Below are positions 2,234-41,950 of a stretch of DNA of 63,186 nucleotides, one piece after another. The notes under the pieces are model-generated. The model saw nothing but the letters and a program-made list of their open reading frames with translations. It was not told the origin of the DNA and did no database searches. The first letter of the stretch is position 1, and every line of letters begins with the position of its first letter. Both the position numbers and the translations under genes were made by a program. The stretch is from an uncultured Oscillospiraceae bacterium (lineage in GTDB: Bacteria; Bacillota; Clostridia; Oscillospirales; Ruminococcaceae), in the NCBI GenBank assembly GCA_964483415.1, contig CAZAAR010000002.1, positions 1 through 63,186 of the forward strand. The letters run 5' to 3'.

Positions 2234-4576
2234 TCAGACGGCGGCTTTCACGATCTCCTCGATGATCGGCAGGACCATCGGCGAGCGCTTCGTGAGGCCG
2301 AACAGGTAGCTCCCGACCGCGTCCTTGATCTTCGTCTTGAGGTTCTGCCAGTCGCGCTTGTTGTCGGAGACGCTCGCCTCGACGGTCTTGCGCGCGATCT
2401 GTCTCGCCGCCTCGAGCATATCCTCGGCCTCCCGCACATAGACGAAGCCGCGGGAGACGATGTCCGGCCCGGCGAGGATCTCCCCGGTGTCGCGGTCGAG
2501 CGTGAGGGTGACGATGATCAGACCGTCCTCCCCGAGACGCTTTCTGTCGCGCAGCACCACGCTGCCGACGTCGCCGACCCCGAGGCCGTCCACAAGGATG
2601 GCCCCCGCGGACACGGAGGAGGTGGCGTTGATGCCCGCCTCGTTGACCTCGATCACGCGCCCGATCTCCGGGATCATGACGTTTTCCGGCGGCATGCCCA
2701 TGCTCATGGCGAGCTCGGCGTGCTTTTTCAGGTGCTTGTATTCGCCGTGGACGGGGATGAAGAAACGCGGTTTTGTCAGCGAGAGCATCAGCTTTTCCTC
2801 GTCCTGACAGGCGTGCCCGGAGACGTGGATCTGGCTGTAACGCTCGTAGACGACCTCCGCGCCGAGGCGCATCAGCTCGTTGACGACCCGCCCGACGTCT
2901 TTTTCGTTGCCGGGGATGGGGTAGGCGGAGATGATGACGAGGTCGCGGGAGTTGATGTTGATTTTGCGGTGGTCGCCCATGGCCATTCTAGTCAGGGCGG
3001 CCATGGTCTCGCCCTGGCTGCCGGTCGTGACGATGACCGCCTCGTTTTCCGGCAGGCGGCAGATGGTGTCGAGCGAGACGACGGTCCCCTCCGGCGCGAC
3101 GAGGTAGCCCATTTCGAGCGCCTTGGCGGTGACGTGCTCCATGCTGCGGCCGACGACCGCGACCTTCCGGCCAAAGCGCACGGCGGAGTCGATCGCGAGC
3201 TGCACGCGGTGGACGTTGCTCGAGAACGTCGCGACTAAGATCCTGCGCTCGCCGGCGTTTTTAAACAACAGGTCGAAGGATTCCCCGACGGTGCGCTCGC
3301 TCGGCGTATAGCCGGGGCGCTCCGCGTTGGTGGAATCGGAGAGCAGCGCCAAAACGCCCTTGCTGCCGAGCTCGCCGAAGCGCGCGAGGTCGATGATCTC
3401 GTCGTTGGTGGGCGTGTAGTCCACCTTGAAGTCCCCGGTTTCGATGACGATGCCGGCGGGCGTGTGCAGCGCGAGCGCGCAGGAGTCCGGGATGGAGTGG
3501 TTGACATGGATAAATTCCACGGTCATGCACCCCAGCGTGACGGTATCCCGCGGCTTCACGACGTTGAGGAGCGCCTTGTTAAGCAGGCCCTTTTCGGCGA
3601 GCTTGCCCTCGATCAGCGCGATCGTGAAGCGCGTCGCGTAGATCGGGATATTCATCTTTTGGAGCAGGAAGGGGATGCCGCCGATGTGGTCCTCGTGCCC
3701 GTGCGTGACGACGAGGCCGCGGATCCGGTCGCGGTTCTCCTCAAGGTAGGTGAAATCCGGAATGACCAGATCGACGCCCAGCATCTCGTCGCCCGGAAAG
3801 GCGAGCCCGCAGTCCACGATCACGATGTCGTCGCCGTATTCAAAGGCCGTGATATTTTTGCCGATCTCGCCCAGGCCCCCGAGCGGGATGATTTTAAGCG
3901 GCGGCAGTTTGGCGTTTTTGGAGGGGCGTCCGCGCTTCTTTTGGTTCCAGCCCGTCGGGGCGGTGGGTTTCCAGTCCGAGGGGGCGCGGTTCATAAAGAC
4001 CTCGCGGAGCGCGTTTTTCGCGCGGCCGCCGGGGTTTCCTTTCTGCGGGCGGGGGTTTCCCTTCGCGTCTCCGGAGTTCCCTTTTTGAGCGTTCGGGTCT
4101 CCCCTTTGGCCGCCGGAGCCTCCCTGCCGGGCGTTGGGATGTCCCTGCTGCGCGCCGGGATTCCTTTTTTGAGCGTCCGGATTCTTCTTTTGAGCGCCGG
4201 GATTTTCCTGCTGCGCGCCGGGGTTTCCCTTTTGAGCATCCGGCGTTTTCGGCGCGGGAGCCTCTTTTTGGGCGCCGTCCTTCACGGGGGCGGCGGATTT
4301 TTGGTTCTTGGGCGGGCGACCGCGGCGCTTCTGTTTTTGGCGCTGCGGGGCCGCGGTTTCGTGCTCGGTCACAGGTTCACGTTCGGTTACGGATTCGTGT
4401 CTGGGCGCAGATTCGTGTCTGGCCGCGGTTTCGTGCTCGGTCACAGATTCGTGTTCATACTGGCTCTCCGGCAGATTTGCCAGCACCAGATCCAGTTTTT
4501 CCAAATTCGCTTTTTGCATTTTGGCCCGGGCCGCGTCTCTGACGCTCTGGTCGCCCGGATGTTGCTTGTTGTCCAA
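2234..4576 (-). CDS. rnj: ribonuclease J (metallo-beta-lactamase/beta-CASP) with a ~225-aa low-complexity N-terminal extension
   Basis: 780-aa ORF. KIIPLGGLGEIGKNITAFEYGDDIVIVDCG and THGHEDHIGG are RNase J hallmarks. TTG start 7 nt after AAGGAGG. The N-terminus is a K/G/N/P/Q-rich repeat with two RGRP AT-hook-like cores. Confidence 0.9.
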   Translation of the reverse strand: MDNKQHPGDQSVRDAARAKMQKANLEKLDLVLANLPESQYEHESVTEHETAARHESAPRHESVTEREPVTEHETAAPQRQKQKRRGRPPKNQKSAAPVKDGAQKEAPAPKTPDAQKGNPGAQQENPGAQKKNPDAQKRNPGAQQGHPNARQGGSGGQRGDPNAQKGNSGDAKGNPRPQKGNPGGRAKNALREVFMNRAPSDWKPTAPTGWNQKKRGRPSKNAKLPPLKIIPLGGLGEIGKNITAFEYGDDIVIVDCGLAFPGDEMLGVDLVIPDFTYLEENRDRIRGLVVTHGHEDHIGGIPFLLQKMNIPIYATRFTIALIEGKLAEKGLLNKALLNVVKPRDTVTLGCMTVEFIHVNHSIPDSCALALHTPAGIVIETGDFKVDYTPTNDEIIDLARFGELGSKGVLALLSDSTNAERPGYTPSERTVGESFDLLFKNAGERRILVATFSSNVHRVQLAIDSAVRFGRKVAVVGRSMEHVTAKALEMGYLVAPEGTVVSLDTICRLPENEAVIVTTGSQGETMAALTRMAMGDHRKININSRDLVIISAYPIPGNEKDVGRVVNELMRLGAEVVYERYSQIHVSGHACQDEEKLMLSLTKPRFFIPVHGEYKHLKKHAELAMSMGMPPENVMIPEIGRVIEVNEAGINATSSVSAGAILVDGLGVGDVGSVVLRDRKRLGEDGLIIVTLTLDRDTGEILAGPDIVSRGFVYVREAEDMLEAARQIARKTVEASVSDNKRDWQNLKTKIKDAVGSYLFGLTKRSPMVLPIIEEIVKAAV

Positions 4577-33123: not shown

Positions 33124-34245
33124 TCAGAGTTTTCCGACCGTGTCGGAGAGTTCCTCCATATGGACGTAGGCCTTGATCCCCTGCGGGCAATGAGAGGCGC
33201 AGGCCCCGCAGGAGACGCAGGCGGAAGCGCGCCGCCCCTCCGGGAATTTCAAATAGGCATCTTTGGCCTTCCAGGTGACTTTTGTTTCAAGGAAGCGGTT
33301 CATCAGCGTCAGCATGCCGGGGATATCGATGCCGGCGGGGCAGGGCAGGCAGTAGCCGCAGCCCGTGCAGGGGATGCGCTCCATCCGCATCAGGACCTCC
33401 GCCGCCCGGGCGAGCGCCTCCGCCCGGGCCCCGTCGAGCGGTTCCCCGGCGTCGAACACGGCCAGGTTTTCCTCCAGCTGCGCGAGGCTGGACACGCCGC
33501 TCAGGATCGTAAAAATGCCGGGCTTGCCGAAAAACCAGCGGTAGGCAAGCTCGGCGGGCGCGCTTCCGGGACAGGCCTCCGCAAAAATCTTCCGCACGGC
33601 GGCGGGCGGGTTCGCGAGGTAGCCGCCCCGCGCCGGCTCCATCACGATGATCGGGAGCTTGTGCGCCACGAGCCAGTCGTAGAGGTATTTTGCGTCCTGC
33701 TCCTTCCAGTCGAGGTAGTTCATCTCGATCTGCGCGAAATCCCAGTCGTACTCCTCCGTCATCGTCTTCCAGAGCGCCTTGTCGCCGTGAAAGGAAAAAC
33801 CGAGCCTGCGGATCTGGCCTTGCTCTTTCTTTTCGCGCAGGATGCGGTAGGTGTCGGAGCGCACCATGTCCGGGTAATCCTCATTGTCGATCGAGTGGGC
33901 GAGGTAGTTGTCAAAATAATCCACCCGGCACTTTTGGAGCTGCTTGTCGAAGATGCGGCGCACGTCCGCCCCGTCCTTGCAGAGCCAGACCGGCATCTTG
34001 TCCGCGAGGAAGAAGCGCTCGCGCGGGTAATTCGCGAGCAGCTCCCCCATGACGCGTTCGGATTCGCCGCCGTGGTAGCAATAGGCCGTGTCATAATAGT
34101 TGACGCCCCGCTCCATCGCGAGCGCGACCATCCTTTCGGTGTGCGAAACGTCGATGGAGCCGTCCTCCCGCTTCGGCAGGCGCATGGCCCCCATGCCGAG
34201 CAGCGAGGCCTTTTTTTCATAGAGAGCGGTGTCCGTATATTTCAT
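33124..34245 (-). CDS. aldo/keto reductase with C-terminal 2x[4Fe-4S] ferredoxin domain
   Basis: 373 aa. GMGAMRLP...YYDTAYCYHGGESE is the AKR N-terminus. CTGCGYCLPCP and CVSCGACASHCP lie at the C-terminus. Confidence 0.85.
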   Translation of the reverse strand: MKYTDTALYEKKASLLGMGAMRLPKREDGSIDVSHTERMVALAMERGVNYYDTAYCYHGGESERVMGELLANYPRERFFLADKMPVWLCKDGADVRRIFDKQLQKCRVDYFDNYLAHSIDNEDYPDMVRSDTYRILREKKEQGQIRRLGFSFHGDKALWKTMTEEYDWDFAQIEMNYLDWKEQDAKYLYDWLVAHKLPIIVMEPARGGYLANPPAAVRKIFAEACPGSAPAELAYRWFFGKPGIFTILSGVSSLAQLEENLAVFDAGEPLDGARAEALARAAEVLMRMERIPCTGCGYCLPCPAGIDIPGMLTLMNRFLETKVTWKAKDAYLKFPEGRRASACVSCGACASHCPQGIKAYVHMEELSDTVGKL

Positions 34246-34306
34246 TTTCGATGATCCCTTCCCATTGTGAAGATTCTGTGAGCGCGTTTGCCCTCGTCTT
34301 TTTGTG

Positions 34307-34695
34307 TAAAATCGGCCGTCGCCGCAGGCGGGCCGTTAAAATCACAGTAAAATAACCGCTTCATAGGTTCTTATGGCTATTTCACCATAAAGCGACAGCG
34401 TCATGGCGAAATCGGCCGTCGCCGCAGGCGGGCCGTTCAAATCACGGTAAAATAGCCGCTTCATAGGTTCCTATGGCTATTTTACCATAAAGCGACAGCG
34501 TTATGGTAAAATCGGCCATCGCCGCAGGCGGGCCGTTAAAATCACGGTAAATAGCCGCCTCATAGGCTTCTATGGCTATTTCACTATAATGCGACAGCGT
34601 TATGGTGAAATTGGCCGTCGCCGCAGGCGGGCCGTTCAAATCACGGTAAATAGCCGCTTCACAGGCTCTTATGGCTATTTTACCATAAAACTTAA
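34307..34695 (+). repeat. tandem array of four ~100-bp units (fourth truncated), each predicted to form three stem-loops
   Basis: The anchor ATCGGCCGTC/ATCGGCCATC/ATTGGCCGTC recurs at 34311, 34411, 34511 and 34610 (periods 100, 100, 99). Units are roughly 90% identical by eye. Strand assignment is tentative and rests on G-T wobble positions. Confidence 0.9.
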
Positions 34696-34764: not shown

Positions 34765-34793
34765 TTGACGGATGGCGCGCTTTGCGTTAAAAT
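34765..34793 (+). promoter_or_regulatory. sigma-A-type promoter for rpe (and probably the downstream Rnf-like genes)
   Basis: TTGACG (34765-34770), 17 nt spacer, TAAAAT (34788-34793), about 45 nt upstream of the rpe ATG. Confidence 0.55.
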
Positions 34794-34839: not shown

Positions 34840-35505
34840 ATGGGAATCCGGATCTCGCCCTCGCTGCTCTCGGCCGATTTTGCGAATCTCGGCGCGGAGG
34901 CAAGGGCGATGGAACTCGCCGGGGCGGACATGCTCCACCTCGACGTGATGGACGGGCATTTCGTCCCCAACATCAGTTACGGCCCGGTGGTCCTGCGCTC
35001 CCTGCGCAAGGCGAGCCCGATGTTTTTCGATACGCACCTGATGATCTCGGAGCCGCTGCGCTATATCGGGGATTATGTCGGGGCCGGGGCCGGGCTCATC
35101 ACATTCCATCTCGAGTCCGGCGACGAGCCCATGGCCGTGATCGAAAAGATCCGCTCCTTCGGCGTCTCCCCGGCGATCTCTTTGAGGCCCAAGACCCCGG
35201 CGGAGGCGGTCTTTCCGTATCTCCCCTTTATTGACATGGTCCTCGTGATGACGGTGGAGCCGGGCTTCGGCGGCCAGAGCTTCATGGAGGACATGGCGCC
35301 CAAGATCGAAGCGATCCGGCGGGAGGCCGCCCGCGTCGGGCGCCCGCTCGACATTCAGGTGGACGGCGGCATCGACGAGCGGACCGCGCCGGTCGCGGTC
35401 AGGGCCGGGGCGAATATTTTGGTGGCCGGCTCCTCGCTCTTTCATCAGGCGGATTACGCCGCGGCGGTGCGAAACCTGCGCGCGGCCGCGGAGGCCGCCC
35501 TGTAA
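34840..35505 (+). CDS. rpe: ribulose-phosphate 3-epimerase
   Basis: 221 aa. PSLLSADFANLG, HLDVMDGHFVPN, MTVEPGFGGQ, VDGG. Confidence 0.95.
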   Translation: MGIRISPSLLSADFANLGAEARAMELAGADMLHLDVMDGHFVPNISYGPVVLRSLRKASPMFFDTHLMISEPLRYIGDYVGAGAGLITFHLESGDEPMAVIEKIRSFGVSPAISLRPKTPAEAVFPYLPFIDMVLVMTVEPGFGGQSFMEDMAPKIEAIRREAARVGRPLDIQVDGGIDERTAPVAVRAGANILVAGSSLFHQADYAAAVRNLRAAAEAAL

Positions 35506-40516: not shown

Positions 40517-41950
40517 TCAGTTGCCCGCCGCGGGTTTGCTGGTCGCCGAGGAGCCGGAGGCCGCGGGCTTGCTGCTGGTCGCAGCGGGCTTGCTGGTTGT
40601 CGTGGAGCCGGACGTCGCGGGCTTGCTGGTCGCCGCGGAACTGTTTGCGGACGAGCCGCTCTCCGTTCCGGAGACGGGCTCGGTCTTCGGCACGACCGGC
40701 GTGATCGGCGGATGGACGGCGTCCGGATTGATCACAAACTCGGCCTCCGTCTTCATCGCGGTCTTGGGGTTGGTCACGAGCTTCGCCATCACGACGAAGC
40801 GGTAGTTCTCGCGGGTCGCGAGCCCCCAGCCCACCGTGCAGGTGGAGAAGGTCAGGATCTTGTCGCTCTTGGTCACCGGGACGTTATAGGTGTAGAGGGA
40901 GCGGTTCTTTGCCGTGGTGAGCAGGAAATCAAACGCGGAGTCGTCCGGGGCGGGGTCGATGTACCAGAACGCCTTGCCGTCGATGGCTTTGTCGTTGTAA
41001 AAGACCGCGAAGACCTCCCAGACCATATCCTGATCGGCGGTCGAGAAGAAGATATAAGGCGTCTTCCTGGCGAAAGCCTCGTCCGTGAAGTAGAAGAGCT
41101 GGGAGAAGCGCGGGCCGGCCGCGTCGTCGGCCTTATACTCGAGGTTGGTGGAGCCGAGGTCGCTGTGGCCGAAGATGACGGTGTTTTTGGACAGGCCCGC
41201 CGCGCCGCCTTCAAACGTGTTGTATTTGCTCGAGTAGTAGGCGCCGTCGATCCAGTAAGTGTTGTAGACGTATTTGCCCAAGTCGTTGCGGTAGTTGTAG
41301 GAGTAGGAATTCTTGTCTTGGCAGACGACGGCATTGATGTCCGAAAGGCCCGGGACGTTGAGCCAGCCGACCACGTCGCCGTTCGCGTTGAAGGCCGCGG
41401 CGATCTGCTCAAGCCGGCTGACGACCTCGACGGGCTGCGGCTCCGCCTCGGAATTTTCCTCCGAGCTCCCGCTTTCGATGATCACGGCGCCGGACTCGGA
41501 TTCCTCCCCGGGCGTGCGGCTGCCGGAGGAGCAGGAGGCGATGAGCAGGACAAGCAGCAGCACAACGGCCGCCGCCACGATCCCGAGGCGCAGCACCAGT
41601 TTCCCGGTAGGCATCGACCGGACGGTCTCGGCAAGCGCCCTCAGCTTCCCGGAGAAGCCGCCCGCGGCGTTTACCGGCTCGCCGTCGTCCCAATCAGCCG
41701 ATTCGGTCTCGGGTTCCGCTTCGGGTGTCTCTTCGGGGAAAGCGTCCGCGCCGCCCGGTTCATCCCCCGGAGAGGGCGTCTCCGCGGCGGGCTCGTAGAT
41801 CCGGGCGTCGCCGCCTACATATGTACCGAACGGTTTTTCTTCTTCCTCGTCCTCCGTCTCCGCGCCGGTCCCGGGCCTTTTCCGAAGGAGATCCTTGGCC
41901 CCGGCCTCCGCGTCGTTTTTGAGATCTTTTAGTTTATCGAGAAAACTCAT
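40517..41950 (-). CDS. class-B-type sortase with long acidic cytoplasmic N-terminus and S/T/P/K-rich C-terminal tail
   Basis: 477 aa from ATG 41950 (AAGGA RBS). TM LGIVAAAVVLLLVLLIA. Sortase blocks VVGWLNVPGLSDINAVVCQDKN, NTVIFGHSD (His), ILTFSTCT (Cys), and YRFVVMAKL (Arg). Confidence 0.75.
   Translation of the reverse strand: MSFLDKLKDLKNDAEAGAKDLLRKRPGTGAETEDEEEEKPFGTYVGGDARIYEPAAETPSPGDEPGGADAFPEETPEAEPETESADWDDGEPVNAAGGFSGKLRALAETVRSMPTGKLVLRLGIVAAAVVLLLVLLIASCSSGSRTPGEESESGAVIIESGSSEENSEAEPQPVEVVSRLEQIAAAFNANGDVVGWLNVPGLSDINAVVCQDKNSYSYNYRNDLGKYVYNTYWIDGAYYSSKYNTFEGGAAGLSKNTVIFGHSDLGSTNLEYKADDAAGPRFSQLFYFTDEAFARKTPYIFFSTADQDMVWEVFAVFYNDKAIDGKAFWYIDPAPDDSAFDFLLTTAKNRSLYTYNVPVTKSDKILTFSTCTVGWGLATRENYRFVVMAKLVTNPKTAMKTEAEFVINPDAVHPPITPVVPKTEPVSGTESGSSANSSAATSKPATSGSTTTSKPAATSSKPAASGSSATSKPAAGN

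Follow-up and report, generated by a model that had tools for sequence, protein, structure and literature searches.

The tandem array between the AKR gene and rpe in the window (the whole stretch of DNA analysed, 63,186 nt) is, on balance, likely to be one copy of a promoter-anchored palindromic cassette that is dispersed among Clostridia and has here been amplified in tandem. More than 60 loci in Oscillospiraceae and Syntrophomonadaceae carry members of this family, either singly or in arrays of two to four units with periods of 61–100 nt. At two unrelated loci, comparison of sites that carry and lack the element shows it to be inserted immediately after a −10 hexamer that was already there, and its copy number varies between relatives. 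RNA contigs from one cultured carrier show a family member transcribed together with a well-expressed gene, as its 5′ leader. Literature searches found no description of a hairpin-repeat family of this kind, and this three-hairpin, promoter-anchored element of gut and digester Clostridia is apparently undescribed.

Layout of the array and the gene it precedes

The array (Table 1) has four units with a mean identity of 91% at periods of 100, 100 and 99 nt, as the first-pass annotation had measured and Tandem Repeats Finder confirmed; the gene-proximal unit, u1, is truncated and lacks the 5′ arm of H3. The earlier statement that this is not a CRISPR also stands, since the whole 100-nt unit repeats at 89–91% identity. 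Each unit consists of one GC-rich hairpin (H1) and two AT-rich hairpins (H2 and H3). Three hairpins per unit had been described and are present, but the second of them is merely the tip of a longer hairpin, GGTAAAATAGCC...GGCTATTTTACC. H1 is a GC-rich 21-mer (GGCCGTCGCCGCAGGCGGGCC) that folds into 4 + 4 bp around a 3-nt loop, with a bulge of 2 nt (R-T); it occurs four times at up to one mismatch, where 0.07 occurrences are expected, and within the 63-kb window it is found only in the array. The 3′ arm of H2 overlaps the 5′ arm of H3, and in the last H2 copy the promoter box itself forms that arm. The TAAAAT hexamers that had been noted in the units are present, as is the T-A to C-G compensatory double change in hairpin 3. 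All box copies in the array carry this local TAAAAT variant, which fits arms copied from, or corrected against, the local box.

Table 1. Positions of the array, its hairpins and the neighboring genes and promoter-like sites in the window
Feature	Position	Strand	Details
Aldo/keto reductase and 4Fe-4S dicluster gene (AKR)	33124..34245	minus	Pfam PF00248 (2.7e-37) and Fer4 families
Proximal junction and rest of AKR leader, GATTTTACACAAAAAGACGAGGGCAAACGCGCTCACAGAATCTTCACAATGGGAAGGGATCATCGAAA	34246..34313	minus	RBS included; from sequence
Tandem array	34306..34689		3.9 units; Tandem Repeats Finder period 100, 89% matches, score 607
Units	u1 34306-34405; u2 34406-34505; u3 34506-34604; u4 34605-34689		
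H1 copies	34314-34334; 34414-34434; 34514-34534; 34613-34633		GC hairpin, sequence nearly invariant across the family
H2, best copy	34446-34488		Outer stem GGTAAAATAGCC/GGCTATTTTACC with apical mini-hairpin; from fold and family covariation
H2, other copies	34346-34388 (degenerate); 34546-34587; 34645-34686		
H3, perfect copy	34478-34513		ATTTTACCATAA...TTATGGTAAAAT around GCGACAGC; from fold and family covariation
H3, other copies	34378-34413; 34577-34612		
Distal box TTTTATGGTAAAATA, predicted extended −10 promoter	34690-34676	minus	TG 34685-34684, TAAAAT 34682-34677
rpe promoter-like site, TTGACG-17-TAAAAT	34765-34793	plus	Separate from the element, ~75 nt to the right of the array
rpe	34840-35505	plus	Rnf-like genes follow

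From its fixed family orientation (described below) and its distal −10 box, the array is assigned to the minus-strand AKR gene. Transcription from the distal box is predicted to start near 34670, and this putative promoter reads through the array into the AKR/Fe-S gene and not into rpe. An rpe promoter-like site does exist near the array, as had been reported; the proposed link of the array to rpe and the unusual Rnf-like operon is not supported, as the orientation rule and the distal −10 box both point to the AKR/Fe-S oxidoreductase gene.

Each box also starts a mini-ORF on the gene strand (window 34682–34671, minus: ATG GTA AAA TAG; family consensus ATG GTA TAA), probably a by-product of the TRTGnTATAAT sequence. 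A contig from a manure metagenome (run X4) joins position 34641 back to 34375 through 23 other letters (window 34375–34641), and comes either from a strain in which the array is arranged differently or from a related array at another place. Tandem Repeats Finder reported further repeats in the window at 4026–4230 (period 84) and 40526–40628 (period 54), probably within coding sequence.

The dispersed family and its promoter boxes

The exact H1 21-mer occurs at more than 60 loci outside the window. Scanning with GGCCRTCGCCGYAGGCGGGCC gave 58 metagenome loci, about 35 of them true relatives, and a genome scan with a short H1 pattern gave 39 loci, of which about 35 are real. Two matches on viral contigs, together with matches in Nocardia and other high-GC sequences, fell inside coding sequence and were rejected as chance, and the plasmid and phage collections contained no match to the element. 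Carriers are almost all Oscillospiraceae/Ruminococcaceae MAGs and isolates (including Harryflintia acetispora DSM 100433, CP176394.1 and OttesenSCG-928-L11) with several loci per genome, the number of exact-H1 loci ranging from 1 to 10, while the subgroup upstream of phoH is from Syntrophomonadaceae. Read along the plus strand of the window, the common architecture is ATTATACCAT-loop-ATGGTATAAT, T, H1, ataaaat, GTATAATAnCCGC-loop-GCGGnTATTATAC, CAT, with H3-loop signatures that are genome-specific. H1 as a 33-nt module is also found in other metagenome contigs with different flanks; among metagenome contigs at 80% likeness, H1 depth was about 9x that of the flanks, with no H1 variant at a frequency of at least 10%. 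A covariance model built from 35 units (R1) found no further copy in the 63-kb window besides the array.

Orientation relative to genes is nearly fixed. With genes called by a crude ORF and GC3 rule, a gene start adjoins one particular end of the element in 41 of 44 arrays (93%; binomial p about 1e-9), compared with neighbors on the opposite flank that are split into 24 plus and 19 minus. Replication strand was rejected as a cause, since the gene bias is present on one side alone (41/44 vs. 19/43). At its far end the element always has a box, the complement of which reads xTGnTATAAT. Exact TATAAT was found in 44 of 52 distal boxes vs. 7 of 24 internal ones, most distal boxes have TG two bases upstream, and a −35 hexamer (at least 4/6 matches to TTGACA, 16–18 nt upstream, in unique flanking sequence) accompanies 21 of 47 where 5.7 are expected. 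The distal box therefore combines the features of a sigma-A extended −10 promoter (TGnTATAAT, a −35 at 16–18 nt, and an orientation pointing at the gene), and the TATAAT, the enriched −35 and the downstream gene start together argue that it is a real sigma-A promoter reading through the element. The genes so placed have little in common: downstream proteins of 30 loci fall into more than 25 unrelated Pfam families, and include PhoH, isochorismatase, glycerate kinase, LigA, pyruvate kinase, GdpP, aconitase, FtsW/SpoVE and ABC proteins. A riboswitch, a regulon or a gene-specific cis-regulatory leader was rejected because of this diversity of unrelated housekeeping genes.

Empty and filled sites were compared at two loci. 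At the AKR locus, the filled sites (the window and L100, which has 95% amino acid identity and at least the proximal unit) read ATGGTAAAATA, the array, then TACACAAAAAG.... The X1 strain, about 90% identical and co-occurring in the metagenome, is empty and reads ATGGTAAAATA followed by TAAACAGGAAAAATTAC-ACGCGCTCACAG; L101/L102, at 84% amino acid identity and syntenic with rpe, are likewise empty and read ATGGTAAAATA followed by CAGAAGAAGG-GGCCCGCCTGC-CCC-TCACAG. These array-less relatives keep the box TTTTATGGTAAAATA and have a homologue of the AKR leader (...TCACAGAATC...). In L101 (2950–2965), GGCCCGCCTGC corresponds to the initial 11 nt of H1, read on the gene strand, and lies 10 nt past the promoter box, a remnant suggesting that the element was once there in L101/L102 and has since been mostly deleted. 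At the yqfD-phoH locus of Syntrophomonadaceae, four empty sites (L103, L104, L105, and L106) have ATG(C/G/A)TATAAT ~45 nt before the start codon, and three filled sites (L034, L052, and L071) share the same upstream context, with ATGCTATAAT, an insert ending in ATGATATAAT, then TACTAGCAG. This insert ends in a second copy of the box and is flanked by a 10-nt direct repeat of it with one mismatch, as a target-site duplication might leave; at the AKR locus the proximal copy is missing. The insert ends, AACCGCAAAACGG... and ...GAATTTGAGAAATTC, are not the inverted repeats that would mark a MITE (Correia-like). Because the promoter is kept at the empty sites of both loci, it is native, and the element is an insertion behind it. 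The filled phoH copies are almost identical over ~100 nt, in contrast to flanking genes that are about 80–85% identical and an adjacent UTR that is variable, which argues for purifying selection on the element. At the AIM24 locus of the isolate CP176394.1 (L068; in one source Acidaminobacterium chupaoyuni strain LBM23126), relatives are too diverged for an informative comparison of this kind.

On the gene strand (minus in the window), the proposed cassette begins with the native sigma-A box TRTGnTATAAT, here TATGGTAAAAT, followed by one or more units. Each unit runs from the H2 core through an inverted box and a linker to H1, and from there through a second inverted box and a loop to a direct box; the ribosome-binding site and the gene come after the last unit. 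The promoter box serves as one arm of H2, and the box copies as arms of H3. Units probably spread, multiply in tandem and are cleanly lost through recombination at short homologies, or through template switching, between the box copies (~10 nt) on either side of each unit, a model derived from the junctions at two loci. The presumed effect would be on expression of the attached gene (here AKR), with leader hairpins acting on mRNA stability or processing, extra boxes acting as promoters, or both, as candidate routes; promoter palindromes would be another. Neither a simple leader model nor a recombination model accounts for the near-invariance of H1, which hints that a specific partner binds it, and the array of regulator-binding sites that the first-pass annotation offered as an alternative may apply to this hairpin.

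Strand symmetry, transcription and alternative explanations

Across 35 family units, 91.8% of cells are paired and 17 pairs have double changes, values reached by 0 of 500 shuffles, and slid controls collapse. Covariation was found for 8 of 14 pairs in H2 and 9 of 10 in H3, in agreement with the earlier suggestion of selection on pairing with compensatory changes; H1 is invariant in the 35-unit set, partly by construction of the set. RNA constraint on a transcribed strand is expected to give a strong G·U excess over A·C. Over 35–38 units, however, G·T and A·C mismatches number 14 vs. 10 in H3, 25 vs. 33 in H2, and 39 vs. 43 in the two combined, and fold energies are equal on both strands across family units. 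As there is no G·U excess, matching of the palindromes seems to be maintained in the DNA, or in the form of perfect duplexes, and under the recombination model the covariation would reflect palindrome arms being kept matched in DNA.

The same symmetry bears on the first-pass proposal, in which the array near the rpe promoter would encode a structured small RNA on the plus strand, or a protein sponge; we regard this as highly improbable. The array does fold strongly on the plus strand (z = −8.0 against shuffles), but it folds on the minus strand as well (z = −7.2). Its wobbles go both ways and are not all G-T on the plus strand, as had been stated: the first H3, with two A·C mismatches on the plus strand, has its more stable fold on the minus strand (−16.6 vs. 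−10.6 kcal/mol), the third is better on plus (−18.9 vs. −10.2 kcal/mol), and the second folds equally on both. The orientation rule points to the minus-strand gene, and the 35–38 family units have no strand asymmetry. Intrinsic terminators (a GC-rich hairpin with a T run) number zero on both strands between 34150 and 34900, the tails after H1 on the minus strand being GATTTTAC or AATTTCAC. An sRNA gene was rejected, since neither strand has a promoter followed by a terminator around a unit. Rfam holds no counterpart: the best match of Rfam 15 to the window was SAM_alpha at 17.8 bits (gathering score 36), nine typical family loci gave nothing on the element at E < 0.6, and a search for tRNA and tmRNA found none. 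The notion of a local, unique ncRNA gene or sponge thus gives way to one amplified copy of a dispersed promoter-anchored element, the units of which are bounded by no canonical terminator.

A search of RNA runs gave no match to the array or to 7.5 kb around it. Transcription of a family member can be followed in L068, where the RNA contig of an AIM24-family gene starts at 4244–4247 in four of five informative runs, 18–21 nt past a TATAAT (4221–4226), and continues unbroken through H1 and H3 into the gene at a depth of 138–206. The contig of the upstream gene has a depth of 14–31 and ends at 4076–4100, and the gap between it and the downstream contig is empty; in one run the contig reaches 4181, 40 nt upstream of the −10. 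As Logan contigs carry neither strand nor local depth, we infer the start site and direction of transcription, and the contig start is consistent with the predicted one. That a family member is transcribed as the leader of a downstream mRNA speaks against a stand-alone ncRNA. Given this contig start, the 5′ arm of H2 is absent from that mRNA; with its 5′ arm upstream of the predicted start, H2 cannot form in a single-unit mRNA, yet H2 covaries.

This last point is among those that would favor a device acting in DNA, by cruciform extrusion or by protein binding with H1 as the operator, so that supercoiling or a global regulator would influence the promoter and the array would multiply the sites. 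In H2 the −10 box has the early transcribed region as its pairing partner, there is no asymmetry between G·U and A·C, and H1 is conserved in sequence beyond what pairing demands. However, the bulge in H1 breaks dyad symmetry and makes it a poor site for a dimeric binder of duplex DNA, and the downstream genes share no common theme; we consider such a device quite unlikely as the explanation of the family. The main rival to recombination is a single-strand mobile element of HUH/Y1 type (REP/RAYT- or IS200/IS605-PATE-like), with H1 as the site of a trans-acting transposase and the 3′ side of the −10 hexamer as its fixed target. It would account for an H1 that is nearly invariant over two bacterial families while the other stems covary, for the conserved 2-nt bulge, for insertion always on the same side of TATAAT and in one orientation, and for the genome-specific H3-loop signatures that suggest spread within genomes. 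Its probability is nevertheless low, as single units have one H1 and not two subterminal hairpins, direct box copies flank units in the way recombination would leave them, genomes have just 1–10 exact-H1 loci, and no transposase was seen in the flanks of the loci.

A neutral minisatellite, in which the array arose by slippage from an inserted repeat and has no relevance to selection, would fit its absence from the ~90%-identical strain and from the relative at 84% amino acid identity. It would also fit some non-compensated differences between units, the degenerate H2 of u1, and the two of three internal boxes that are poor −10s. Against this stand the family members at orthologous sites, which are far better conserved than their surroundings, and pairing maintained at 92%; neutrality of the element as a whole is accordingly very unlikely, while the copy number of the array itself may be neutral. 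A bolder reading, possible but speculative, is that of a promoter-homing cassette, which would use the extended −10 box as its site of integration and amplification and would supply unrelated housekeeping genes, in two or more families of Clostridia, with a standard structured leader placed behind their promoters. Homing could proceed by pairing of the internal inverted box copies, or through a dedicated enzyme that reads the invariant bulged H1.

Comparison with known repeats, and variant units

Small interspersed repeats are known to tune bacterial gene expression. We know of no repeat that sits systematically on a −10 box and includes the box in its own hairpins. Pneumococcal BOX elements, with the structure boxA-boxB(n)-boxC, were reported to raise or lower expression of downstream genes (PMC3049150). 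Compared by described features, BOX and the present family are both small, interspersed, modular and highly base-paired intergenic repeats that have one module variable in tandem copy number and are co-transcribed with neighboring genes; BOX, however, carries terminal inverted repeats and is not tied to a −10 box, in contrast to a promoter box that is a hairpin arm and a near-absolute orientation here (PMC3049150). Correia elements of Neisseria, as partly described in the same source, are also small repeats that bring or generate promoter hexamers at their ends and form co-transcribed mRNA hairpins, and have 26-bp terminal inverted repeats, a TA duplication and either orientation. The present family differs from these in having no terminal inverted repeats and in inserting behind an existing −10 box. 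Reused or “mobile” promoters place similar promoter-region sequence before unrelated genes within and between genomes, whereas in the present family the −35 and its context are locus-specific and the cassette behind the −10 is shared (PMC3575422).

The enterobacterial REP/BIME sequences, with their RAYT transposases, share with the present family a GC-rich imperfect palindrome (here H1), mosaic tandem units, an intergenic position and transcription. REPs lie mostly at gene ends or inside operons and occur in hundreds; the present family was found at 1–10 loci per genome, 93% of them just upstream of a gene start. Copy number and placement do not fit REP/BIME, with 1 to about 9 exact-H1 loci per genome and 41 of 44 arrays next to a gene start.

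If the placement rule holds genome-wide, the family would be a new repeat class for annotating gut and digester Clostridia, where arrays also break assemblies, and its empty, single-copy and multi-copy alleles would form a natural experiment on how leader hairpins or promoter palindromes affect expression. It could also point to a new integration mechanism aimed at promoters. Should the homing-cassette reading be true, it would add a mode of mobility and expression rewiring not described for bacterial repeats.

Several units depart from the common architecture. In some (L004:1126–1320, the distal unit of L067, and L073:6721–6840), H1 is replaced by a ~45-nt hairpin (GNNCATC...) with the same foot and the same 2-nt bulge position as H1 and with covarying stems, which makes the central module of the cassette exchangeable. 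A phoH-associated copy (L003:9769–9885, the same in L026) carries a 117-nt GC-rich, hairpin-rich insert between H1 and H2 that the orthologous copies of L034, L052, and L071 lack. Lastly, a 61-nt-period array upstream of a DivIVA-like gene (L097:1–190) is made of units with H1 and H3 and without H2, and the DivIVA-like gene in L028 has a single full unit.
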